Below are positions 1-64,000 of a stretch of DNA of 64,000 nucleotides, in pieces. A program made the position numbers and the translations under genes. Within the stretch, counting starts at the first letter, position 1, and every line of letters begins with the position of its first letter. The stretch spans positions 29,105 through 93,104 of the forward strand of contig CAVIQL010000001.1 in NCBI GenBank assembly GCA_963644855.1, read 5' to 3'. Below the pieces are notes generated by a model. That model made no database searches. It was not told the origin of the DNA and worked only from the letters and a program-made list of their open reading frames with translations. This DNA is from Clostridiaceae bacterium Marseille-Q4149. GTDB taxonomy: Bacteria; Bacteroidota; Bacteroidia; Bacteroidales; Bacteroidaceae.

Positions 1-343
1 GTTGCTGCTCGTCGTTTGAAAGGTTGTGGAAATAACGGTTCTCAAACATGAAATCGCCGTTCACGTATTGGCATATAGATATTGTGCGCTGCTGTCCGTC
101 GAGCACTTCATAGGGAACGGGGTTGTCGGCATCGCGTTCCACCCAATACATCACGTTTAGCGGAAAATTGTTTCTCACAGTGTGTATCACGGCATCGCGT
201 TGCTTTTCTTTGTAAATGAATTCGCGTTGATAGGGTGGGCGTATGTCGAGTTTTCCGCCGTATCCTCTTACGCCTTGCTCGTTGTTGTCTTCATAGTTTT
301 TCGTTAATTCGCGAATTGTAATCTGATGCAGTTCTATGTTCAT
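1..343 (-). CDS. DUF262 (ParB/Srx-like, GmrSD-N-type) domain protein, copy A; N-terminal part only, gene runs off the window start
   Basis: Absent from the ORF track because there is no stop in the window. Reverse translation from the ATG at 343-341 gives MNIELHQITIRELTKNYEDNNEQGVRGYGGKLDIRPPYQREFIYKEKQRDAVIHTV...YEVLDGQQRTISICQYV. This is co-linear with the 60233..61357 protein and includes the DGQQR motif. Confidence 0.8.
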   Translation of the reverse strand, partial: MNIELHQITIRELTKNYEDNNEQGVRGYGGKLDIRPPYQREFIYKEKQRDAVIHTVRNNFPLNVMYWVERDADNPVPYEVLDGQQRTISICQYVNGDFMFENRYFHNLSNDEQQ

Positions 344-379: not shown

Positions 380-1411
380 TTATTTCTTACGTCGAATGAA
401 CAGTCTTTTGTAAGTGTTGTTTCCTTTGATAGATGGATTCATATTGGTGGCTTTATCCCATTCTGCAGGTCTTCCGTAATTATAAGAACAACCGAGGATT
501 TCAAATTGTTCGGGATTGTGTTTATGTAGGAACGAAACTGGTACGCCCATTACTCCATAGTAATCGCAAGGAATGTCTTCTATCTTTTTAATATGTATGG
601 CATCGTAGTTGTCGTATTTGGGATATTTTTCGGGCGAGTAGTTCTTATATAATATGAGTTCTTCGTTGCGTTTGGGAATCTCAAGATTGGTAAACCAACA
701 TATGTTGCCGAAACTTCTCCACCTTTTGCCGTTTTTATCAATCCACGATCTTGTTTTTCTGTCTGGGTAATCGTCGGGAACCCTGAAAGCTTGGTCGCCA
801 TATTTATAGCCAAGCCAAATTTGGTTGTTGTAGATAAAAGGAAAGATATCTTTATATGTTGTTTTGTTTATGTCTCCCATTATTATAAACTTCTTGTTGT
901 ATTTCATAAGTAGCGGCACGTATTCCCGAAATAGGGTGAACGGCGGATTTGTTACCACAATGTCGGCTTCTTTTAGGAATTCCACGCACTCGGGCGAACT
1001 AAAATCGCCGTTGCCTTTGAGAAGTTTTACCACGTGCTTGTCTTGCGACAAAAGCAGTTTGACATCTTCGAGGTCTATTCGCCCGTCGCCGTTATAGTCT
1101 TTCATTTCGGTAATCTCCACCTTGTAGGCTTTTCGCGGGGTTTGCTTCATTTCTTCAAACAAAAACTCATTGCCCGATATTGGTGAGCCGTTGTAGCAGG
1201 TGGATATGAGTTTTTTCAAACCAAACTCGTTGAAATTCGCTGCGAAATACTTGAAAAAGTTGCTTTCATAGGGGTCGTCGCAATTACACAGAATGGTTTT
1301 GCCCGCAAAGTGTTTACGGTAGTGTTTCAATTCGTTTTCAATGTCGGGCATTTGGGTGTAAAACTCGTTCTGCTTGGTTCGCTTTGCCACATTAAGGTTC
1401 TTGTTTGCCAT
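380..1411 (-). CDS. EcoRI-methylase-like N6-adenine DNA methyltransferase, copy A
   Basis: 343-aa ORF. N-terminal EFYTQ...GKTILCNCDDPYESNFFKYF block and VVTNPPF (NPPF catalytic motif). Co-linear paralog of 61430..62470. Confidence 0.8.
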   Translation of the reverse strand: MANKNLNVAKRTKQNEFYTQMPDIENELKHYRKHFAGKTILCNCDDPYESNFFKYFAANFNEFGLKKLISTCYNGSPISGNEFLFEEMKQTPRKAYKVEITEMKDYNGDGRIDLEDVKLLLSQDKHVVKLLKGNGDFSSPECVEFLKEADIVVTNPPFTLFREYVPLLMKYNKKFIIMGDINKTTYKDIFPFIYNNQIWLGYKYGDQAFRVPDDYPDRKTRSWIDKNGKRWRSFGNICWFTNLEIPKRNEELILYKNYSPEKYPKYDNYDAIHIKKIEDIPCDYYGVMGVPVSFLHKHNPEQFEILGCSYNYGRPAEWDKATNMNPSIKGNNTYKRLFIRRKK

Positions 1412-1742
1412 AAATGATTGATAGTTTTAACGAGCACCGACTATCAATCACGCCAAGACACAATAAAAGCGTGATGCTCTTATTGCGTTTAGCTTAGGGG
1501 CAGCGTAGGATGGAAACCCCTTCCTCTCAAAATAAGCGCACCACGCCATGCGACGTGAGCATTGCTTATACGAGAGGAAAGGTGTACCGCTACGGATCAC
1601 CTTTCACATATTATTTCTGTGTTGTTTATTTCCAAATAGTTTCCTACGCTTTTGGCTAAACGCGAAATAATAGCGAATGCTTTTTTAGTTTTTACCGATA
1701 AGACAGCGAAGCGCGCAAACTGCAAAGTGTGCGTTGTTCGCC
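1412..1742 (-). ncRNA. Conserved structured 5' leader / candidate ncRNA of methyltransferase operon A
   Basis: No conserved ORF. Runs of 31 nt (1652-1682) and 13 nt (1605-1617) are identical to copy B (62705-62735, 62658-62670). Helices 1521-1528/1572-1579 and 1532-1537/1564-1569 are replaced by different but still complementary sequences in copy B. Hairpin 1415-1425/1440-1450 ends 3 nt before the start codon. Confidence 0.55.
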
Positions 1743-1747
1743 ATTTG

Positions 1748-1755
1748 CAAATATA
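1748..1755 (-). promoter_or_regulatory. -7 promoter box TATATTTG (Bacteroidetes TAnnTTTG consensus) for operon A
   Basis: The minus strand reads ...atatttgcggaaatcatTATATTTGcaaatgg. The same block is conserved upstream of copy B. There is no properly spaced -33 TTTG. Confidence 0.5.
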
Positions 1756-1999: not shown

Positions 2000-3451
2000 A
2001 TGGACGCAATATATTTTTTACAGAAAAAACTTTCGTGTGCAGCGATAGCCGGTCTGTTAATGACTTTCGGCGTTTCGTGCAGCAATTCTCAAACCGGAGA
2101 GCAACAACTTACCTCTTGGAGCTCGCTCGATGGCAAGACAACAGTTCAACAACCTGAAATCGCGGTGAAGAATGGCGATGTGTTGAAAGCAGAAGGCGAC
2201 TACAAAAATTTTGAACTGAACGGAAAGGTTTATACTTCCCAAGACGCCGAGGCTTCAATGCTTTTCCATTCCGACGGAAAGAGTGGTTATGAAGTTCTTT
2301 TCCACAACGGGGCAATCGATGGTACTACCAAAACCGGCAGCCTTTGCGCTGTGCGCAATCTTTATCGCTCATTGGCAGCCGACAGTGCGTGGACAGATTT
2401 CCGAATTGCGGTAAAAGGCAAGAACATATCCGTTAATATCGGCGGCACAGACGTGGTTTGCTATACCGAGCCGGCACAACCTTATCGTTTGAAGGAATAT
2501 GCTTCGCGTTTGCTCGGACATGGCGCGTTTGTGCTGGTAGGAAAGAAAGGCGAAGTACGCTTCAAGGATTTAAAAGTAACCGCATTGCCCGAAAACGCAC
2601 GCAATTCAAACGACACGCTACCCGCCATAGACGAACAAACCGACAGCATAATTCGTTTACAACAGCGCGGATTTCCCGTGATAGACTATCATGTGCATCT
2701 CAAAGGCGGACTGACCAAAGAACAAGCTCATGCCATGTCGATGAATTATGGCATTAATTATGGTATTGCCCCGAATGCGGGCGAAGGCGGCATAGGTCGT
2801 ATGCTTTCTACCGACGAAGAAGTTTACCAATATTTCAATGAGGTAAAACCATTGCCGTTTCTTTGTGGCGTGCAAGGCGAAGGGCGTCGTTGGTCTACGC
2901 AATTCTCGCCAAAGGCATTGGGCATATTTGATTATCTGTTCACCGATGCAATGACAATAATGGACAAAGGAGTTCGCACTCGCCTATACCACCCCGAAGA
3001 AGTGCATCTTGACGGGCGCAGCAAGGAAGAATATATGGATCTTATCGTGAGTCAAATCGAAAAAATCCTATCTTACGAGCCTGCAGATATATATGCCAAT
3101 CCTACTTACCTACCCGAAATTTTGAATGCTGACTATGATAAATATTGGACAGACGAGCGTGTGAACCGCATGTTGGATGTGATGCAAAAATATCATATTG
3201 CCCTCGAAATAAATCCGCGTTACAAGATTCCAAGTTTCGATATTATTCGCAAGGCAAAGGCTCGCGGAATGAAATTTACTTTTGGAACAAACAACGAGAA
3301 CGCTGATTTTGGAAAATTGGAGTATGCTATTCAAGCCATATATGCTTGCGGATTAACAAAAGACGATATTTGGTTCCCGTCGATGAGTGTTCGTCGCGAT
3401 AGAGTGCCGGTTGATTATAATGGTTTCAAAAAAGCGGCAGCGCAGAAATAG
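2000..3451 (+). CDS. Lipoprotein: N-terminal DUF1080 (3-keto-disaccharide hydrolase-like) domain fused to a C-terminal PHP/amidohydrolase-like metal hydrolase domain
   Basis: Signal/lipobox LLMTFGVSCS. KNFELNGKVY...MLFHSDG...GYEVLF...FRIAVKG...FKDLKV resembles DUF1080. The C-terminal VIDYHVHLKGG...EINPRYK...FTFGTNNEN resembles metal-dependent hydrolases. Confidence 0.55.
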   Translation: MDAIYFLQKKLSCAAIAGLLMTFGVSCSNSQTGEQQLTSWSSLDGKTTVQQPEIAVKNGDVLKAEGDYKNFELNGKVYTSQDAEASMLFHSDGKSGYEVLFHNGAIDGTTKTGSLCAVRNLYRSLAADSAWTDFRIAVKGKNISVNIGGTDVVCYTEPAQPYRLKEYASRLLGHGAFVLVGKKGEVRFKDLKVTALPENARNSNDTLPAIDEQTDSIIRLQQRGFPVIDYHVHLKGGLTKEQAHAMSMNYGINYGIAPNAGEGGIGRMLSTDEEVYQYFNEVKPLPFLCGVQGEGRRWSTQFSPKALGIFDYLFTDAMTIMDKGVRTRLYHPEEVHLDGRSKEEYMDLIVSQIEKILSYEPADIYANPTYLPEILNADYDKYWTDERVNRMLDVMQKYHIALEINPRYKIPSFDIIRKAKARGMKFTFGTNNENADFGKLEYAIQAIYACGLTKDDIWFPSMSVRRDRVPVDYNGFKKAAAQK

Positions 3452-3480
3452 AAAAATACAAAATGTGAGCGTATGCGGAA

Positions 3481-3585
3481 AAACAATGCCGCATATCCGA
3501 GAAACGAAGTCCGATATTGTTTAAACGATATCGGACTTCGTTTTAACAAGATGCCTTGGAATTTTTACGATATCAAATGTGCCTA
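3481..3585. repeat. Repeat family locus R2 (word array plus hairpin)
   Basis: aaacaatgccgcatatccgag...gtccgatattgtttaaacgatatcggac...agatgccttggaatttttacgatatc. Confidence 0.7.
3504..3544 (+). terminator. Hairpin terminator after the 2000..3451 gene
   Basis: Perfect 14-bp stem acgaagtccgatat / atatcggacttcgt (3504-3517 / 3528-3541) followed by TTT. Confidence 0.6.
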
Positions 3586-3646
3586 AAACCAATTACTCAA
3601 AAAGGCGAAAAAGTGCCGATAACCGAGACGGGAAAGGCGTTGCGTT

Positions 3647-3700
3647 TAAAAACAAAAAGCCCCAAACTGCCGCCATAAGGCTGAAACGCAGATTGGGACT
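3647..3700 (-). terminator. recA terminator
   Basis: 13-bp stem 3658-3670 / 3688-3700 (one G-U and one mismatch on the minus strand), followed on the minus strand by ttttgttttt. Confidence 0.55.
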
Positions 3701-3719
3701 TGATGTTATAGAATTTAGA

Positions 3720-4793
3720 TTATTCGTTGCCCATTTCAGAATCGTCGGAATCGTCTCCTTCTTCGATATTTGGGTTGCCATTAAGGAACTCTACTACTTT
3801 GTTCTCTATTTCCTGGCGGAATTCAAGGTTGTCTTTCAACAGACTAATCACAGAATCGCGACCTTGTCCGATTTTGGTATCTCCATAACTGAACCACGAA
3901 CCACTTTTCTTGATTATGTTGTTGTCGATAGCAACGTCTATTAATTCGCCAACGCGTGAAATTCCTTCTCCGAATATAATGTCGAATTTGCAGACGCGGA
4001 ATGGGGGAGCAACTTTGTTTTTTACGATTTTTACGCGCACTTTGTTTCCGTACACTTTATCGCCTGTTTTCAACGCTTCGGCTTTGCGTATGTCCAAACG
4101 CACCGAAGCGTAGAATTTCAACGCATTTCCGCCCGTTGTTGTCTCGGGATTGCCATACATTACTCCGATTTTCTCGCGCAACTGGTTGATGAAAATGCAG
4201 GTAGTGCGGGTTTTGCTTATCACAGAAGTGAGTTTGCGCAAAGCTTGGCTCATTAGTCGTGCCTGCAAGCCCACTTTGTTTTCTCCCATAACGCCTTCGA
4301 TTTCGGCTTTGGGGGTTAACGCTGCAACAGAGTCGATTACTACGATATCTACAGCGGCTGAGCGAATGAGTTGGTCGGCTATGTCGAGTGCTTGTTCGCC
4401 GTTGTCGGGTTGCGAAATCAGCAAATCGTCAACTTTTACTCCGAGTTTGGCTGCATAGAAACGGTCGAAAGCGTGCTCAGCGTCTATAAATGCAGCAATG
4501 CCGCCTGCTTTCTGCGTTTCGGCAATGGCATGCAGGGCGAGAGTTGTCTTTCCCGAACTTTCGGGACCGAATATCTCTACGATTCTTCCGCGTGGATATC
4601 CGCCCACACCCAATGCTGCGTCGAGCATAATGCTTCCGCTGGGAATTACTTCCACTTTTTCTACGTGTTCGTCTCCGAGGCGCATGATTGTGCCTTTGCC
4701 AAAGTCTTTTTCTATCTTCGCCATTGCGGCTTGCAGCGCTTTCAGTTTTTCGCTGTTTGCCGAGGGCGTTTCTTCAATATTCTTTTTTGCCAT
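3720..4793 (-). CDS. recA: Recombinase RecA
   Basis: MAKKNIE...[19 protein letters not shown]...[16 protein letters not shown] (Walker A)...; start moved to the ATG at 4793 (Met94 of the 450-aa ORF). The upstream extension has no RecA similarity. Confidence 0.97.
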
Positions 4794-4948
4794 GTTAATG
4801 CTTGGCTTTGTGCCTTGTTTGCTTTGTTTATGATATACAAAGATAGAAATAATTTTCAGAATTGAAACCAAGCAGTCTTTTTTTATCATAAACCGAATGT
4901 CGTAGCGTGGGAGTGGGGCAGAATGGCTTGGATTTACGCTTAATTCTT

Positions 4949-4956
4949 TAATTTTG
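4949..4956 (+). promoter_or_regulatory. -7 box TAATTTTG upstream of the nucleosidase-family gene
   Basis: Matches TAnnTTTG. It overlaps the first ATG of the ORF (4954), which argues for the downstream start at 4972. Confidence 0.4.
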
Positions 4957-4971
4957 CAGATACAACGAAAT

Positions 4972-5559
4972 ATGTTTGACATGGGAAATCGAAAAATTTT
5001 GATATCATTTGCTTTGCCGGAAGAGACGCCCGACTTTGCGGCAAGCGAAACAGTGAGAGTGATAACCACCAAGGTTGGAAAGGCGAGCGCTGCCTATAGG
5101 CTTACAAAAAACATCTTGGATTTTAAGCCCGACATAGTGATAAATGCAGGCACGGCGGGAACTGTGAAATGGAATGTGGGAGATATTGTGGTTTCGAGGC
5201 GTTTCTACGACCGCGACCTTGCTCCGCTTACAATCGAGGGCGTGGTTAGCGAAATTGAAGTGGAAGAGGCTTTGAAAATTCCCTCGATTATTGAAAACCG
5301 CGAGAACTTCGGCGATTTTGTGGTGAATACCGGCGATGACTTTGTTACGGATTTGTCGACTGTGGTGGGAGATGTTATTGATATGGAGGGATTTGCGCAA
5401 GCTGTGGTTTGTCAGTCTGAAAACATTCCCTTTGTTTCTGTGAAATATATCACAGATATTATCGGTCAAAACAGTGTTAAGGTGTGGAACGAGAAACTTG
5501 CCGATGCGCGCAAGGCTCTTGGAGATTACTTCAACAGGTATGTTTTCCCGCTTATTTGA
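4972..5559 (+). CDS. MTA/SAH nucleosidase-family (phosphorylase family 1) protein
   Basis: [10 protein letters not shown]...[10 protein letters not shown]...[15 protein letters not shown] pattern typical of Pfs/MtnN-like nucleosidases. Start 4972 or 4981. Confidence 0.65.
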
Positions 5560-5584
5560 CGTAGTAAAAAAAACAAGGCATATG

Positions 5585-5680
5585 GTTTTTCTAATATCCG
5601 ATATTTTTTAAACAATGTCGGATATTTTTTAAATAATGTCAGACATTGTTTTTGCGATAAGCCTTATGTTTTTTGCAGAA
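5585..5680. repeat. Repeat family locus R3
   Basis: ctaATATCCGATATtttttaaacaATGTCGGATATtttttaaataATGTCAGACATtgtttttgcgataagcc. Confidence 0.8.
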
Positions 5681-5942
5681 AGAATATTTGGACGGAAATA
5701 TCTAAGACATAGGGAGATATATAAGTCTTGGTAGTTTTGCGCATTTGGAGCTTGGGAGCATGGCAAAGAATGTTGTGCCTTGGGTGTGCCAAAAGTAATG
5801 TGCACATTCAAAGTTTGCGGCTTTTTGCAGGTTGGTAAACTTTTATACAATGCATTTTGACGGAAAAAGGTGCGGTTCGGTCTTTTTGTGTCGGCTTTTC
5901 TTTGCAAAAAGACTAACTTTGTTTCAATTTACAGTCAAAAGC

Positions 5943-6716
5943 ATGAAAATTTCAATTATAGGCGCGGGAAATATGGGCGTAGCCATAGCCTGCGGATTGG
6001 TCGGCGACAAAAAGTTGACGCTTATGGTGTCGAATCCGACAAAGGGTAAACTCGAAGCATTGAAGAACATTCACCCGGAAATAAACATTACGACAAACAA
6101 CTGCTATGCGGCAGAATGGGCAGACGTTGTGATTCTTGCCGTTAAGCCATGGATTATGCAAACCGTGGTGAAAGAGATAAAAAACTCGCTATCTCCGGAA
6201 CGCCAACAATTGGTATCGATTGCAGCAGGTGTGAAAACCGCCGAAATTTTGTCGTGGCTCGACGGAATTAGTATGCCTGTTTATTATCTTATACCCAACA
6301 CAGCCATAAGCATAAGCCAAAGCATGACTTTTGTAGCCCCTTGCAATGCCGACGAAAAGCAGGTGGACGTTATAATGTCGCTATTCGGAAAACTGGGAAA
6401 GGTGATGTTCGTGGAGGAAAAGGAAATACCGGCGTGCATGGCGCTTGCCTCGTGCGGAATAGCTTATGCCATGCGTTATGCAAGGGCTAACATGGAGGGC
6501 GCAATTGAACTGGGAATAAAACCGGCAAAGGCTCTCGAAATTATAGAGCAAACCATGATCGGCGCAGCCGAACTGCTTGCGGCCACAGGCAATCACCCCG
6601 AAGTGGAAATAGACAAGGTTACAACTCCGGGCGGACTTACGATAAAAGGTATCAATGCCTTGGAAGAAAATGGTTTCACAACGGCGGTGATAAAAGCCCT
6701 GAAAGCATCAATCTAA
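5943..6716 (+). CDS. proC: Pyrroline-5-carboxylate reductase
   Basis: MKISIIGAGNMGVAIACGL Rossmann start; C-terminal VTTPGGLTIKG motif. Start moved to the ATG at 5943. Confidence 0.9.
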   Translation: MKISIIGAGNMGVAIACGLVGDKKLTLMVSNPTKGKLEALKNIHPEINITTNNCYAAEWADVVILAVKPWIMQTVVKEIKNSLSPERQQLVSIAAGVKTAEILSWLDGISMPVYYLIPNTAISISQSMTFVAPCNADEKQVDVIMSLFGKLGKVMFVEEKEIPACMALASCGIAYAMRYARANMEGAIELGIKPAKALEIIEQTMIGAAELLAATGNHPEVEIDKVTTPGGLTIKGINALEENGFTTAVIKALKASI

Positions 6717-60232: not shown

Positions 60233-61357
60233 TTATCTTCCGCCTTTTCTCCGATTACATTCCCGGCACAACATTTGGCAGTTCTCCTCAATGGTGCGTC
60301 CGCCTTCGCGCCACGGAGTGATATGGTCGCCTTCCATGAATTCCATGTCGAGTTCTTTGCCGCAGATGGCGCACTTGTGGTTTTGTCTTTCCCATGCGGC
60401 AAGTTTTGTTTGCATATCAAAAACGCGCAGATCGAGATATCGTTCGTCGCCCGTGAGCACATAGGGAATTATTCCGCCGGGCTTTTGTATTTCGCTGTCT
60501 TTCATGAGCGCGGAAATCCGTTTGCCAATAGCCGAAACATCGAGTGTGTCTTCATGAAAACGGTCGTAGAAATAAGCCCAATCGAGTCCTTTCATAATCT
60601 TCTTGAAATGTTTCATGTCGAAGTTCGTAATGGCCCAGTTTAATACGTTTTGAAAATAGCTCCAAAGGTTGTTGGCGTTAGGGTCGTGCTGATGTTTCGC
60701 CATATATCCCACTATGGTTTGCCCGTGTCCCTCGCGCGTTTCGTGTTGTGCAATCCATTCGAGCGCTTTTTTCAGAAAATCCTGGCGGTTGGGCGTGCCG
60801 TTCACCAAATCTTTGCCCAAGCGATACGCGCCGCAGTTGTTTTTTGAAAAATGACGCTTTGCATCGCTCACAAAAGGGCCTGCATAGACAGCATTGTTTA
60901 TTTCCTGTTCGTTAAGAGGCTTTCCCGCTATGTTTATTGTTTTGAACCATTCCAATTTTTCCGAAGCTTCTCCCTCGCAGATATACACTGTGAGCGGATA
61001 GGTAAGTATTCGCTTTTGTATGTCGGCGGGTTGGTTGAAAAAGTTCTTGAACTCGAAACTGAATTTCCCCGCTACGTATTCGCAAATCGAGAGGGTGCGT
61101 TGCTGGCCGTCCATAACTTCGTAAGGACATTCGGCATCGTCGCTGCGCTTCACCCAATACATCACATTCAAAGGGTAGCCCTGCATCACAGTATTGATTA
61201 CGGCTTGCTGTTCTTTCTCATTATATATAAACTCACGCTGATAGGGCGGACGAATGTCGAGTTTGCCGTTGTATCCGCGCACTCCCTGTTCGTCGTTGTT
61301 GGAGTAGTCGCGCGTTATATCGCCAACGGTAACTTCTATCTGCTTTATGGTCATCAT
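60233..61357 (-). CDS. DUF262 (ParB/Srx-like, GmrSD-N-type) domain protein with a C-terminal HNH nuclease motif, copy B
   Basis: 374 aa. N-terminal RPPYQREFIY...VMDGQQRTLSI (DGQQR motif). C-terminal KCAICGKELD...GDHITPWREGGRTIEENCQMLCRECNRRKGG (HNH). Confidence 0.8.
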   Translation of the reverse strand: MMTIKQIEVTVGDITRDYSNNDEQGVRGYNGKLDIRPPYQREFIYNEKEQQAVINTVMQGYPLNVMYWVKRSDDAECPYEVMDGQQRTLSICEYVAGKFSFEFKNFFNQPADIQKRILTYPLTVYICEGEASEKLEWFKTINIAGKPLNEQEINNAVYAGPFVSDAKRHFSKNNCGAYRLGKDLVNGTPNRQDFLKKALEWIAQHETREGHGQTIVGYMAKHQHDPNANNLWSYFQNVLNWAITNFDMKHFKKIMKGLDWAYFYDRFHEDTLDVSAIGKRISALMKDSEIQKPGGIIPYVLTGDERYLDLRVFDMQTKLAAWERQNHKCAICGKELDMEFMEGDHITPWREGGRTIEENCQMLCRECNRRKGGR

Positions 61358-61429: not shown

Positions 61430-62470
61430 TTATTTTCTGCGGCGAATGAAAATCCGCTTGTAAATTCCTTTTCCATTAACAACTGGTGCGTCTCGTCTGG
61501 GAAAAGGAATCTCGTAGTCTTTAAGCATTCCGTCTCCTCCTCTATCTGTAGTCCAAATAATTTCAAATTGGTCGGGACAATATTTGTCGAGGAATGTGAT
61601 TGGCACGCCCATAACACCATCGTAATCGCAGGGAATGTCTGCTGTGCGGCTTACTTCGATAGCATTGTAATTATCATACCGAGGGTATTCGTCTGGAGAG
61701 TAATGGCATACCAAATCCAAGTAATCACTTCGCTTTGGTATCTCGAGGTTTGTAAACCACATCACTCCCGAAACTCTTATCATGCCTTTGCGATGGTCTC
61801 CTGCCGTAGCTTTGTCTTCGTAAGGCGACATAAAATGTGCGGCAGTGCCTTTGAAACCATATCCCAACCACAATTGATTGTTCTTGATATAGGGAAAGAT
61901 TTCCTTGTAAGTAATTGCGTTTTGATTTCCCACGATAATAAATTTCTTGTTGTGCTTCATGAGTTGCGATACATATTCGCGAAACAACGAAAAAGGCGGA
62001 TTTGTTACCACTATGTCGGCTTCTTTTAGAAGTTCCACGCATTCTGTGCTGCGGAAATCTCCTGTTTGCAGTGTGGAAATCACATTCCGATCGTTTTGCA
62101 ACAGATAGCGCACGTCCGACAAGTCAACGGCTCCGTCGCCATTGAGGTCTTTTACTTCCGTAATCTCAACCTTGTAAGCTATTTTCTTTGGTTCGCTGTC
62201 GAATTCCTCGAAATGTATCAACAATTCGTTGCCTTGCACCGGCGAACCGTTATAACAGGTGCAAATAAGCTTCTTCAAACCAAGCTGATTGAAGCGTAGC
62301 GCAAAATATTTGAAGAAATTGCTCTCGAAAGGGTCATCGCAGTTACACAGAATGGTTTTGCCGCGAAAATGTTGCCAATAATGTTGAAGTTCGCGCTCAA
62401 TGTCGACGAGTTGGGTGTAGAACTCGTCTTTTTTTGCCGTCTTTGCGGCACCAAGATGTTTGTTTGCCAT
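61430..62470 (-). CDS. EcoRI-methylase-like N6-adenine DNA methyltransferase, copy B
   Basis: MANKHLGAAKTAKKDEFYTQ...ILCNCDDPFESNFFKYF...VVTNPPF. Start moved to ATG 62470 by alignment with copy A. Confidence 0.8.
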   Translation of the reverse strand: MANKHLGAAKTAKKDEFYTQLVDIERELQHYWQHFRGKTILCNCDDPFESNFFKYFALRFNQLGLKKLICTCYNGSPVQGNELLIHFEEFDSEPKKIAYKVEITEVKDLNGDGAVDLSDVRYLLQNDRNVISTLQTGDFRSTECVELLKEADIVVTNPPFSLFREYVSQLMKHNKKFIIVGNQNAITYKEIFPYIKNNQLWLGYGFKGTAAHFMSPYEDKATAGDHRKGMIRVSGVMWFTNLEIPKRSDYLDLVCHYSPDEYPRYDNYNAIEVSRTADIPCDYDGVMGVPITFLDKYCPDQFEIIWTTDRGGDGMLKDYEIPFPRRDAPVVNGKGIYKRIFIRRRK

Positions 62471-62790
62471 AGCAGACCGATAGTTTATAGCCGCTATCAA
62501 TCCGCTAAAACGCAAAAAAGGCGTGTGCCTCTTATCGCGTTTAGCACGGGGCGAGCCTCGGAATGGAGCCCCAGTCTATTTATAAGAATGCAGCACGCCT
62601 ATAGCGTGGGCATTGCATTATATAAATAGAACAGAGGTTCTCACACGAGCCGCCTGTCACATATTATTTCCGTGCTTGTTATTCCAATTGAGTTTCCGAG
62701 GCTCTTGGCTAAACGCGAAATAATAGCGAATGCTTATGATTTTACCAAAAAGATATCGCGGGATAGATCTCTAAGACCATATCTTTCCGC
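62471..62790 (-). ncRNA. Conserved structured 5' leader / candidate ncRNA of methyltransferase operon B
   Basis: Same architecture as 1412-1742. Helices: 62575-62583/62622-62630, 62587-62591/62610-62614, 62594-62598/62604-62608, 62662-62670/62717-62725, 62536-62545/62708-62717. Start-codon hairpin 62470-62483/62494-62507, whose three mismatches become G-U pairs only on the minus strand. Confidence 0.55.
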
Positions 62791-62796
62791 TATTTG

Positions 62797-62804
62797 CAAA
62801 AATA
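62797..62804 (-). promoter_or_regulatory. -7 promoter box TATTTTTG for operon B
   Basis: The minus strand reads ...atatttcgggaaatcgcTATTTTTGcaaatagc, homologous to the block upstream of copy A. Confidence 0.5.
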
Positions 62805-62870: not shown

Positions 62871-62915
62871 TAAAAACAAAACCAGCCTCACAACAGGAAT
62901 GTGGGGCTGGTTTTT
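62871..62915. terminator. Hairpin terminator downstream of the threonine aldolase gene (bidirectional shape)
   Basis: ccagcctcaca / tgtggggctgg stem (62882-62892 / 62900-62910, one non-Watson-Crick pair), flanked by an A-rich run and a T-run. Confidence 0.6.
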
Positions 62916-62931
62916 ATGGTATGGCTTGTCC

Positions 62932-63025
62932 CAAAAACAATGTCTGATATTTTTTTAATAATGTCAGACATTATTTAAAAAAGGTCGGATATTATTTAAA
63001 CGATATGGCTTATTGTTTTTGTGAT
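62932..63025. repeat. Repeat family locus R15
   Basis: caATGTCTGATATttttttaataATGTCAGACATtatttaaaaaaGGTCGGATATtatttaaacgatatggcttattgtttttgtg. Confidence 0.8.
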
Positions 63026-63037
63026 GTAGTTTGTGCT

Positions 63038-64000
63038 TTATTTAAGTGCCGCTTTTATGTCGGCCACAAGCGTTGCTACATCTTCTTCTGTGGTATCAAA
63101 CGAAGTTACAAATCTTATTTCCTTGATGTTTTCGTCCCAATAAAAAAACTTTTGCTTCTTTTCCAATTCTTCCGCCGCTTTGGGTGGCATGGTAAGAAAC
63201 AATTGGTTGCTTTCGGTGGGCTGCATGAAATGTATTTCGGGTATTTGGTCGAGGGCGTTGCGTAGAATTTCTGCCATGCGGTTTGCGTGGCGTGCGTTGC
63301 GCAACCAAAGTTGCCCGGTCATGTATGCTGTGAATTGACAAGCAAGGAAGCGTTGTTTCGATGCCAGTTGTGCGCTTTGCTTGCGTATGAATACGGAGTG
63401 TTTCTTCAAATCGTCGTTCAAAACCACTACGCATTCGCCAATCATAAGTCCGTTTTTGGTTCCTCCAAAACTCACAACGTCTATACCGCAATCGCGTGTC
63501 AATTCTTTCAGTCCCGTATTGAGAGCTGCGGCAGCGTTTGCCAATCGTGCGCCGTCCATATGTACATACATTCCGTGGCTATGGGCGAGGGTAGTGATGG
63601 CTTTTAGTTCTTCGGGCTTGTAAACCGTTCCCATTTCGCTGCATTGCGAAATGTATATAGCCGTTGGCTGTGAATGGTGTTGCTCTCCTATTCCAACGAT
63701 GTAGGGCTTTATGAGCGCGGCACTGAGTTTTCCGTCGGGTGTGGGGATTGTTTTTATCGCTGCGCCTGTCATCTTTCCCGGTGCGCCGCATTCGTCAACA
63801 ACTATATGGGCAGTTTCTGCACAGAGAATGAGTCCCCACGATTGGGTACACAATTCCAGCGCAAGACAATTGCTGCCCGTGCCGTTGAAAGTGAACAATA
63901 CTTGTGTGCCTCCGCCAAAAGCGTTGTCGATAGCCTTTTCTGCTTCTTCCGACCACTGATCTTCTCCGTATCCCACGGCGTGGTCTTTATTCGCTTTCAC
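63038..64000 (-). CDS. ltaE: Low-specificity threonine aldolase / beta-eliminating lyase family protein (N-terminus beyond the window end)
   Basis: GTQVLFTFNGTGSNCLALE...HMDGARLANAA...SFGGTKNG (PLP-lysine region). The ORF is open to the window edge. Confidence 0.75.
   Translation of the reverse strand: MKANKDHAVGYGEDQWSEEAEKAIDNAFGGGTQVLFTFNGTGSNCLALELCTQSWGLILCAETAHIVVDECGAPGKMTGAAIKTIPTPDGKLSAALIKPYIVGIGEQHHSQPTAIYISQCSEMGTVYKPEELKAITTLAHSHGMYVHMDGARLANAAAALNTGLKELTRDCGIDVVSFGGTKNGLMIGECVVVLNDDLKKHSVFIRKQSAQLASKQRFLACQFTAYMTGQLWLRNARHANRMAEILRNALDQIPEIHFMQPTESNQLFLTMPPKAAEELEKKQKFFYWDENIKEIRFVTSFDTTEEDVATLVADIKAALK

Follow-up and report, generated by a model that had tools for sequence, protein, structure and literature searches.

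What precedes the methyltransferase genes of two restriction-modification (R-M) operons that lie at opposite ends of a 64,000-nucleotide (nt) stretch of DNA from Clostridiaceae bacterium Marseille-Q4149 (placed by GTDB in the Bacteroidaceae; contig CAVIQL010000001.1, positions 29,105 to 93,104)? R-M systems need tight control, since the host dies from a shortage of methylase or an excess of nuclease. In this stretch, hereafter the window, each operon is headed by a leader of about 330 nt in total, with a core of about 215 nt and a length of about 280 nt up to a U-rich tract (the U-tract). Our analysis of the sequences suggests that this leader is most likely an undescribed RNA switch that gates the expression of R-M (phage defense) operons, and on balance we think it probable that the element acts in cis, as a riboswitch-like transcription attenuator in the mRNA 5′ leader. 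The genes at both window ends are encoded on the minus strand, so that the leader RNA corresponds to the reverse complement of the strand shown. The two copies are located as follows.

Copy A, 1412-1742, minus strand: whole leader, from the putative transcription start (placed from the -7 promoter box) to the base before the methylase ATG
Copy B, 62471-62792, minus strand: whole leader

Both copies are noncoding, as a preliminary description of this DNA had proposed: no open reading frame (ORF) lies between the promoter and the methylase in either window copy, and in relatives, 1-nt indels within the most conserved block interrupt the frame that spans the core. A leader peptide was considered separately and dropped; the short ORFs near the 5′ end vary in frame and length by our own reading, and the long core frame is the indel-broken one. 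The computed folding energies of the leader are -117.6 kcal/mol (copy A) and -117.1 kcal/mol (copy B), with z values of -5.68 and -5.06, and none of 100 dinucleotide shuffles was as stable. Covariation was counted on structure-blind MAFFT alignments, the main one comprising 68 homologs. Over helices P1, P2, P3, PK1, LR, and PK2 (described below), 37 of the 43 tested pairs show double (compensatory) changes and 92.0% of cells are paired, compared with 31 to 49% when the partners are slid; not one of 500 shuffles reached the observed values. The compensatory changes that had been read from the two window copies are thus genuine.

Several observations bear on the strand. The minus-strand (sense) reading, previously drawn from G-U pairs in a single hairpin, holds family-wide: G.U cells in the supported helices number 317 and A.C cells 89. 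From 67 diverse leader copies, a covariance model was built that scores 217.9 bits (copy A) and 183.5 bits (copy B) on the minus strand of the window, while on the plus strand copy B alone matches, with 13.9 bits. All aligned copies (more than 130) hold the P1-flanked segment in one orientation. Given the G.U excess, the near failure of the model on the opposite strand, the single orientation, the promoter, the U-tract, and the distance to the start codon, a sense-strand RNA is by far the most economical reading of the molecule.

Copies A and B share 70% nt identity over the leader and 74% over its core, compared with 66% nt and 59% amino acid (aa) identity over the methylase. The claim that the leader is better conserved than the genes it precedes is therefore fair “in places,” as it was worded: identical runs of 31 nt (copy A 1652-1682 = copy B 62705-62735) and 13 nt (copy A 1605-1617 = copy B 62658-62670) are present, but overall the excess within the window is slight. 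It becomes striking only across genomes: methylases there share as little as 38 to 44% aa identity with the window's, yet their leaders still contain an exact 21-mer and reach more than 200 bits.

The helices sort into two sets. Fold I (P1, P2, P3, Hc, P4, and P5) is a long P1-P2-P3 stem closing a junction with hairpins Hc, P4, and P5, and it is the computed minimum-free-energy structure of both copies. Its parts in the window are listed here.

Copy A, 1655-1663, minus strand: P1 5′ strand GCGUUUAGC, pairs with 1485-1493
Copy A, 1485-1493, minus strand: P1 3′ strand GCUAAACGC, supported by covariation
Copy B, 62708-62717, minus strand: P1 5′ strand, pairs with 62536-62545
Copy B, 62536-62545, minus strand: P1 3′ strand GCUAAACGCG
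Copy A, 1641-1649, minus strand: P2 5′ strand GCGUAGGAA, pairs with 1503-1511
Copy B, 62694-62702, minus strand: P2 5′ strand GCCUCGGAA, pairs with 62555-62563
Copy A, 1629-1633, minus strand: P3 5′ strand GGAAA, pairs with 1512-1516
Copy B, 62682-62686, minus strand: P3 5′ strand UGGAA, pairs with 62564-62567
Copy A, 1605-1621, minus strand: hairpin Hc, CACA-GAAAUAAUA-UGUG, with conserved loop
Copy A, 1580-1603, minus strand: hairpin P4, of differing sequence and length among leaders; covariation in 7 of 8 pairs
Copy A, 1521-1579, minus strand: P5 hairpin, with P5a at 1572-1579/1521-1528, region 1 at 1552-1569, and region 2 at 1531-1547
Copy B, 62575-62630, minus strand: P5 hairpin, with P5a at 62622-62630/62575-62583, region 1 at 62604-62621, and region 2 at 62582-62599

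P1 covaries in diverged members (for example, UA to CG in 23 to 24 sequences), where variants such as GCGUUCAGC/GCUGAACGC, GCGCAUAGC/GCUAUGCGC, CACAUUC/GAAUGUG, and others occur. P2 (GCCUCGGAA/UUCCGAGGC), which is followed by P3, has at least 10 compensated variants, and 7 of its 9 pairs show double changes. Hc, P4, and P5 are likewise backed by many double changes. P5 consists of an outer P5a, an inner P5b, and an apical P5c. In the 116 full-length leaders, P5a occurs in 108 different sequences that are complementary to their own partners, the median longest helix being 7 base pairs (bp) with the leader's own partner versus 4 bp with that of another leader. The local P5c helix is 95.3% canonical, with 43 double-change cells. 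Two further pairings were tried and rejected. In a “P1 extension,” the 5′ box CUAUUAUU would pair with AUAAGAG; its 5′ side is invariant, and AUAAGA covaries with UCUUAU instead. Pairing of a conserved GACAUAUU motif with the Hc loop shows no covariation.

Fold II (LR, PK2, and PK1) rests on a helix that was overlooked in the first reading. An unbiased mutual-information scan of the 116 full-length leaders recovered the modeled helices and exposed the long-range helix LR/PK2, in which the 3′ arm of P5 (GGCGUGAUG-CAU-UCUUAU) pairs with the segment just downstream of P1 (AUAAGA-GG-CAUCACGCC). Together, LR and PK2 make 15 bp, the best-supported helix of all, and pair counting on alignment A5 confirmed it. 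LR is 96.9% canonical, all 9 of its pairs covary, and it holds 144 double-change cells, whereas slid partners are 26 to 62% paired. The top of this stem carries the PK1 (GGGG/CCCC) hairpin, which covaries widely (GAGG/CCUC, AAGG/CCUU, CAGG/CCUG, and GCGGAGG/CCUUCGU). Directly after the 3′ strand of LR comes the U-tract, with at least 5 U in 8 nt in 115 of the 116 leaders against a background of 27% U.

Copy A, 1531-1547, minus strand: region 2, GGCGUGGUG..CUUAUU, the P5 3′ arm in Fold I and the LR+PK2 5′ arm in Fold II
Copy A, 1468-1484, minus strand: region 3, AAUAAG-A-G-CAUCACGCU, the 3′ arm of LR/PK2
Copy B, 62520-62535, minus strand: region 3, AUAAGA-GG-CACACGCC, the 3′ arm of LR/PK2
Copy A, 1496-1521, minus strand: PK1 hairpin, AGGGG (1517-1521) with CCCCU (1496-1500)
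Copy B, 62547-62573, minus strand: PK1 hairpin, UGGGGC (62568-62573) with GCCCCG (62547-62552)
Copy A, 1460-1467, minus strand: U-tract UUUAUUGU, directly 3′ of the LR 3′ strand
Copy B, 62512-62519, minus strand: U-tract UUUUUUGC

Taken alone, the module from region 2 to the U-tract folds as one long hairpin of -31 to -33 kcal/mol, and a consensus scan placed a terminator-like site at 62533..62516 in copy B. Judged by sequence, Fold II with its U-tract is built like an intrinsic terminator that takes its 5′ arm from the upstream domain. A small local “hairpin T” (AAGAGGC-loop-GCCUUUU) had been taken for the terminator. On the structure-blind alignment its pairing is only 73% canonical, the strict terminator rule holds in 30 of 116 cases, and it was dropped because the long-range helix that uses the same 3′ bases is far better supported. 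Pairing of the T-loop with a downstream GGCGGAUU is only partly supported (77% canonical).

Fold I and Fold II compete for the same bases. Region 2 (GCGUG...) is complementary both to region 1 (in P5c) and to region 3 (in LR), and three-way covariation is seen at positions 199, 207, and 282. Where the two pairings can be separated, LR wins: position 213 is compensated at 276 and not at 194. The second conflict is steric. The PK1 loop is made up entirely of two 3′ strands, those of P3 and P2, with a linker of 0 nt between the PK1 5′ strand and the P3 3′ strand and of 1 to 2 nt between the P2 3′ strand and the PK1 3′ strand. Because such linkers cannot close a 14-bp helix, P2/P3 and PK1 should exclude each other, and a true double pseudoknot, with P2 and PK1 formed together, would be ruled out by the linker lengths. 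The helices that the preliminary description had listed, all of them at the coordinates given there (among them ttcctctc/gagaggaa at copy A 1521-1528/1572-1579, gggg/cccc at copy A 1497-1500/1517-1520, tctatttat/ataaataga at copy B 62575-62583/62622-62630, and the nested and apical helices), are thus real but do not belong to one structure; P5a, P5b, and P5c are part of one fold and gggg/cccc is part of the other.

We propose the following course of events. The nascent leader would adopt either Fold I or Fold II. In Fold II, the P5 3′ arm would leave its local partner and pair downstream of P1, with the GGGG/CCCC hairpin on top, and transcription would terminate at the U-tract. Fold I would take up one arm of the terminator and the loop of the top hairpin and would thus act as an antiterminator that allows read-through. 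Whatever stabilizes or destabilizes Fold I, be it a small ligand, a protein, or the kinetics of RNA polymerase, would then decide whether transcription enters the methylase-nuclease operon, and the conserved scaffold with its invariant single-stranded blocks would be the sensor. We infer that the folds alternate in vivo, that termination takes place at the U-tract, that Fold I may be the on-state, and that an effector exists.

The window features on either side of the core are as follows.

Copy A, 1705-1742, minus strand: 5′-terminal hairpin; its sequence varies by locus, and a hairpin stands at this place in the relatives inspected
Copy A, 1664-1681, minus strand: 5′ box AGCAUUCGCUAUUAUUUC, almost unchanged throughout, the most diverged members included
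Copy B, 62717-62734, minus strand: 5′ box AGCAUUCGCUAUUAUUUC
Copy A, 1416-1449, minus strand: start-codon hairpin GAUUGAUAGU...ACUAUCAAUC, 4 nt before the AUG
Copy B, 62470-62507, minus strand: start-codon hairpin of 14 bp with three G-U pairs, its last base being the A of the AUG (62468-62470)

Within the 5′ box, CUAUUAU stands unchanged in 68 of 68 sequences. About 15 to 30 nt before AGCAUU, in the stretch that separates the variable 5′ hairpin from the core, a short conserved motif, (A)GACAUUGUGG or (A)(G)ACAUAUU, was seen, for example, in L009, L160, L122, and L153; it is missing at that position in both window copies, and a covarying partner for it was not found. The start-codon hairpin lies between the U-tract and the AUG and ends 0 to 12 nt before the latter. 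Both of its arms are conserved in sequence (GAUUGAUAG ... CUAUCAAUC) and the loop is variable; it is 95% canonical with 16 double changes, including compensated variants such as GACUGAUAG/..CAGUC. As a possibility only, the 5′ box CUAUUAUUU might pair with GAUUGAUAG at 8 of 9 positions, both sides being free of variation. The span of 50 to 60 nt from the U-tract to the AUG is mostly taken up by the start hairpin and leaves no room for a second promoter, so that the downstream genes would depend on read-through. This conserved hairpin next to the AUG may add control at the level of translation.

How far the leader extends beyond this genome was determined by two routes. The exact 21-mer GCUAUUAUUUCGCGUUUAGCC, common to both window copies, is present in at least 119 genome contigs, a count that is a lower bound. 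These are almost all from Prevotella/Segatella, other Prevotellaceae, the GTDB “Bacteroidaceae,” Muribaculaceae, Paludibacteraceae, and unnamed gut or rumen Bacteroidales. A few are in bins of metagenome-assembled genomes (MAGs) labeled Firmicutes or Alphaproteobacteria. Odd bin labels (Clostridia, Lachnospiraceae, Oscillospiraceae, Christensenellaceae, Azospirillum, and similar) were noted for the leader-bearing contigs L007/L177, L016, L027, L030, L034, L044, L056, L069, L078, L092, L104, L122, and L181; as their methylases and nucleases resemble those of Bacteroidales loci, they are probably misbinned Bacteroidales rather than cases of cross-phylum transfer. The 21-mer had no match in plasmid and phage collections and one match among viral contigs (IMG/VR).

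Because the members of this set share the 21-mer by construction, which is an ascertainment bias, 80 loci of methylase relatives were fetched and searched with the covariance model. Thirty-five matches were found in 34 loci, with scores from 220 down to 36 bits, and 34 of the 35 end about 60 nt upstream of the methylase start, the exception being the upstream leader of a tandem pair at locus L137. Most of the model-positive loci (31 of 34) are labeled Bacteroidales. In 42 model-negative methylase loci that were checked (33 labeled outside Bacteroidales and 9 Bacteroidales; four short Bacteroidales contigs were left out), the hallmark motifs were missing as well. The 33 loci include Selenomonadaceae, Clostridia, Alphaproteobacteria, Kiritimatiellia, candidate phyla radiation (CPR) bacteria, and Chloroflexi. 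Since homologs of the methylase outside Bacteroidales are without the leader, the leader belongs to the host lineage and not to the methylase family. The model found no third leader in the window and no extra copies in the fetched loci except the L137 pair. The homolog search that had been suggested thus yielded further members with compensated helices. Rfam 15 gave nothing credible, whether in gathering mode over the whole window or in a permissive mode with E values up to 10 on both copies; in gathering mode, the search returned nothing for the entire 64-kb window, neither a tRNA nor a riboswitch nor a known small RNA. A description of the motif was not found in the full-text literature searched either, so that the leader matches no described family by model or in that literature.

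Some copies around the 21-mer (L037, L070, L075, L084, L101, and L108) are shortened or interrupted, with differing breakpoints. In L084, the leader is joined after GGAAACUC to the 3′ half of a nuclease gene, and in L070 it is interrupted by a hairpin-forming insertion. By their appearance, these copies have decayed or recombined and do not mark a specific recombination site.

The genes and promoters that the leader joins in the window are the following.

Copy A, 1748-1755, minus strand: putative Bacteroidetes-type -7 promoter box TATATTTG (TAnnTTTG), from sequence
Copy B, 62797-62804, minus strand: -7 box (TAnnTTTG), from sequence
Copy A, 380-1411, minus strand: EcoRI-family N6-adenine DNA methyltransferase gene
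Copy A, 1-343, minus strand: DUF262 (GmrSD_N) restriction enzyme gene, 5′ part, cut by the window edge
Copy B, 61430-62470, minus strand: EcoRI-family DNA methyltransferase gene
Copy B, 60233-61357, minus strand: DUF262 (GmrSD_N) plus HNH protein, a full-length PADLOC type II restriction enzyme match

The TAnnTTTG box followed by a hairpin is found upstream in many of the relatives inspected. PADLOC assigned the window proteins to MTase_II (E values of 1e-117 to 1e-124) and REase_II (E value of 1e-120 across the full length). By these classes, a type II methyltransferase and a type II restriction enzyme, the cargo of the window is an ordinary M-then-R type II R-M system that appears to combine both enzymes, presumably cognates, in one operon.

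Among the 99 leaders of the 21-mer set with enough downstream sequence, about 90 precede DNA methyltransferases of at least four Pfam families. In 82, this is an EcoRI-family methylase, usually followed by a DUF262 nuclease. Five leaders stand before methylases of other Pfam families, namely, N6_Mtase with HSDR_N_2 (type I-like), Eco57I/MmeI (type IIG), and D12 (Dam-like), and three before proteins of 760 to 775 aa with an NPPF/Y motif and no Pfam match, one of them a truncated copy. The last three (L006 at 2946-5270, L103 at 4183-6468, and the truncated L021; 762 to 775 aa) carry (F/L)ENPP(F/Y) and CAGTGN motifs typical of N6-adenine methyltransferases, and judged by sequence they may form an undescribed type IIG-like family. 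The nonmethylase cargo comprises two GT2 glycosyltransferases, two Acyl_transf_3 proteins, one MBOAT protein, and three unannotated proteins, two of which look lipoprotein-like by eye. The remaining leader heads a deletion derivative (L067), whose first ORF of 154 aa joins a methylase start (MANKNLNA...) in frame to the C-terminal HNH part of a DUF262 nuclease. L137, a Bacteroidales contig, has tandem diverged leaders at 1046-1244 and 2251-2447, the first before a DUF2971 gene and the second before an EcoRI-family methylase, next to trmB; the pair indicates that the leader can be used once per gene inside a small defense island. The leader always stands in sense between the -7 box and a start codon, and 50 to 110 nt separate the 3′ strand of P1 from the ATG in the 76 loci where a methylase was found as the first ORF. 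In an all-against-all ORF clustering of 120 loci, only the methylase and the nuclease recurred, and no linked regulator gene was found.

Varied cargo behind one leader and the lack of any other recurring gene argue against a specific partnership with the HNH protein. The tie to the DUF262-HNH protein that the preliminary description had drawn is not supported, given that the same leader stands at the same distance before type I, IIG, and Dam-like methylases, transferases, and DUF2971.

Homology between the two window loci extends about 170 to 250 nt upstream of the promoters (1817-1901 and 62929-63024, both strands). This block is AT rich and has three repeats of about 21 nt (consensus near AAnAATGTCnGAyATTnTTTn) that form imperfect palindromes, and cmscan reported a weak microRNA-like hairpin on both strands of it. 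The block, which may be an operator array or a cassette end, is outside the RNA family because it is missing upstream of most other leaders. At copy B (62878-62914), the repeat block and the promoter are separated by about 60 inserted nt that hold a clean G+C-rich hairpin, AAAACCAGCCTCACA / TGTGGGGCTGGTTTT, which is 93% complementary and is probably the terminator of the upstream minus-strand gene (63038-64000).

Several observations weigh against the proposed attenuator. Fold I is about 15 to 17 kcal/mol more stable in silico than Fold II in both window copies, so that termination would need an effector that destabilizes Fold I or kinetic control. The strict local-hairpin terminator rule holds in only 30 of the 116 tails, albeit with a 5-fold excess over shuffles (4.9%), and the top of the proposed terminator stem is unusually large and branched. 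The three-way covariation might, in principle, be the trace of a folding pathway and not of a regulated switch. About nine Bacteroidales methylase loci are without the leader, which is therefore dispensable for this R-M type. Finally, the cargo hints at no metabolite beyond the weak clue that most of its products, the DNA methylases, use S-adenosylmethionine (SAM); the transferases and unannotated proteins are not SAM users. It is a tentative idea, less likely than not to hold in this form, that the leader is a new and unusually large riboswitch class which senses a small molecule or alarmone and puts R-M systems and some surface-modifying transferases under one signal; that signal might be methyl donor supply, DNA damage, or phage infection.

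The energy gap is also what a constitutive structured untranslated region (UTR) would show. Such a leader would protect the mRNA and present the start codon for Shine-Dalgarno-independent initiation, it would spread with cassettes as a guarantee of expression, and the alternative pairings would be folding intermediates without regulatory meaning. The 5′-terminal and start-proximal hairpins in the relatives inspected and the fusion of the leader to many unrelated genes agree with this, as does Fold I being the computed minimum by a wide margin. We regard it as unlikely, since it leaves unexplained why the 15-bp complementarity of regions 2 and 3 is kept more strictly than the local pairing, why a U-tract follows LR in 115 of 116 leaders, and why the GGGG/CCCC hairpin that competes with P2/P3 covaries. 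Slightly more credit, if still little, is due to a leader that binds a protein or the polymerase: the scaffold and the 5′ box would recruit a Bacteroidales factor (an RNA-binding regulator, a specialized NusG paralog, or RNA polymerase itself, as with put or EAR RNAs) and form an antitermination platform into AT-rich, horizontally acquired genes, with the internal terminator as the first obstacle overcome. It would account for the restriction to one host order whatever the cargo, for cargo typical of horizontal acquisition (R-M systems, glycosyl- and acyltransferases, and DUF2971), for long single-stranded blocks that are invariant without a covarying partner (e.g., GCUAUUAUUUC and CCAAGAG), and for the several, regulon-like copies in one genome. 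However, the leader has no candidate gene for such a factor linked to it, it matched neither EAR nor any other Rfam family, and the alternative folds are more simply explained by a self-contained switch. This explanation overlaps with the attenuator that we favor and differs from it mainly in the effector; we see it as a serious variant of the same idea.

The preliminary description had offered three options, a cis-regulator, an RNA acting in trans or bound by a protein, and an element active as single-stranded DNA (ssDNA), and it is the first that our results favor. An independent noncoding RNA that ends at the U-tract and acts in trans as a ribonucleoprotein partner, for example, bound by the methylase or the DUF262-HNH nuclease, would have its own promoter, a variable 5′ segment followed by a conserved scaffold, and a terminator-like 3′ end, all of which the leader has; with about 280 nt up to the U-tract, it is also big and elaborate for a simple leader. 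Nevertheless, it is improbable: the missing room for a second promoter ties the downstream genes to read-through, the same RNA precedes genes without a nearby nuclease, the variable 5′ segment is a self-complementary hairpin and not guide-like, no HEARO match was obtained, and the clustering of flanking ORFs revealed no IS200/605 or transposon-end context. Least probable, and largely refuted, is a function at the DNA level, as a P1-flanked invertible segment, an operator array, or an ssDNA promoter or origin in conjugative transfer. P1 does form an inverted repeat of 9 to 10 bp on either side of about 160 bp, a palindrome of conserved sequence makes up the start hairpin, and R-M and surface genes are classic phase-variable cargo in Bacteroidales. 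Against it stand the single orientation of all aligned copies, frequent G.U pairs on the sense strand only, covariation of more than 10 internal helices, which double-stranded DNA function does not require, freely varying loop lengths of the palindrome, and flanks without recurring relaxase or transfer genes; the lack of plasmid and phage matches, with only one viral contig, speaks equally against the ssDNA or mobile element option.

An earlier report of a shared RNA leader heading several R-M types was not found in the literature searched, and ours would be the first RNA leader control proposed for R-M systems of several types. Its presence before several types of methylase and its confinement to Bacteroidales point to lineage-specific, RNA-level control of defense genes in abundant gut bacteria. 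If a small molecule is sensed, it would be the first riboswitch known over antiphage defense genes; if any signal is sensed, the timing of changes in the restriction barrier becomes testable, which bears on horizontal gene transfer, phage therapy, and the tractability of Prevotella/Segatella. If the leader only ensures expression, engineers of Bacteroidales could use it as a ready part for expression and insulation. In either case, Rfam lacks this well-supported family of structured RNAs, whose two alternative folds are supported by covariation.

With attenuators in general, the leader shares the sense 5′ UTR position, a covarying domain, and exclusive helices with a candidate terminator stem and U-tract; it is unusual in its size, in its two covariation-backed folds, in its restriction to a single order, and in its cargo. 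Functionally, it is closest to classical attenuators and to ON-type transcriptional riboswitches such as the pbuE (ydhL) adenine riboswitch, in which a multihelix domain closed by P1 likewise lies in the 5′ leader, part of the domain (here, the P5 3′ arm) doubles as the terminator 5′ arm, and folding of the domain excludes the terminator. The leader differs in being much larger, in a gene set that suggests no ligand, in the extra hairpin on top of its terminator stem, and in computed energies that favor the antiterminated fold even without a ligand. It resembles no Rfam riboswitch in sequence or model, and the SAM-I to SAM-VI and SAM/SAH models of Rfam had no match to it. Classical attenuators (the trp leader with its 1:2, 2:3, and 3:4 pairings, PyrR- or TRAP-controlled leaders, and T-box leaders) also have a terminator output and overlapping segments that pair with two partners, and this double pairing freezes the sequence of such segments, there as in our leader. 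Unlike them, the leader has no conserved leader peptide and no PyrR, TRAP, or tRNA binding motif that we recognized, and a large conserved scaffold surrounds its competing segments.

HEARO RNA, the omega-RNA guide of IscB, had been named as a precedent and is likewise a large structured RNA upstream of, and in the same orientation as, an HNH-containing locus, with a variable 5′ part followed by a scaffold. The precedent is not supported, as no HEARO or other Rfam match was found. Here, moreover, the HNH protein is a DUF262 type II enzyme behind a methylase and not IscB, many loci are without an HNH protein, the variable 5′ part is a hairpin, and neither transposon ends nor a recurring transposase was seen. 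Bacteroidales invertons (at capsule, fimbrial, and R-M loci) share the hosts, the cargo classes, and inverted repeats, which here flank about 160 bp; in contrast to them, the leader occurs in one orientation only, its promoter is outside the repeat, and its internal helices covary in a strand-specific manner. Features of Frpo-like leading-region ssDNA promoters were absent in that no plasmid match and no transfer genes in the flanks were found. R-M operons are known to be controlled by C proteins with C-boxes, antisense RNAs, and methylase autorepression. No C gene precedes the methylase and only M and R are conserved, although no explicit C-box search was made. The leader shares with these controls the role of a dedicated regulatory device heading an R-M operon; it differs from them in that it would act at the RNA level in cis and in that it is common to type I, II, IIG, and Dam-like methylases.

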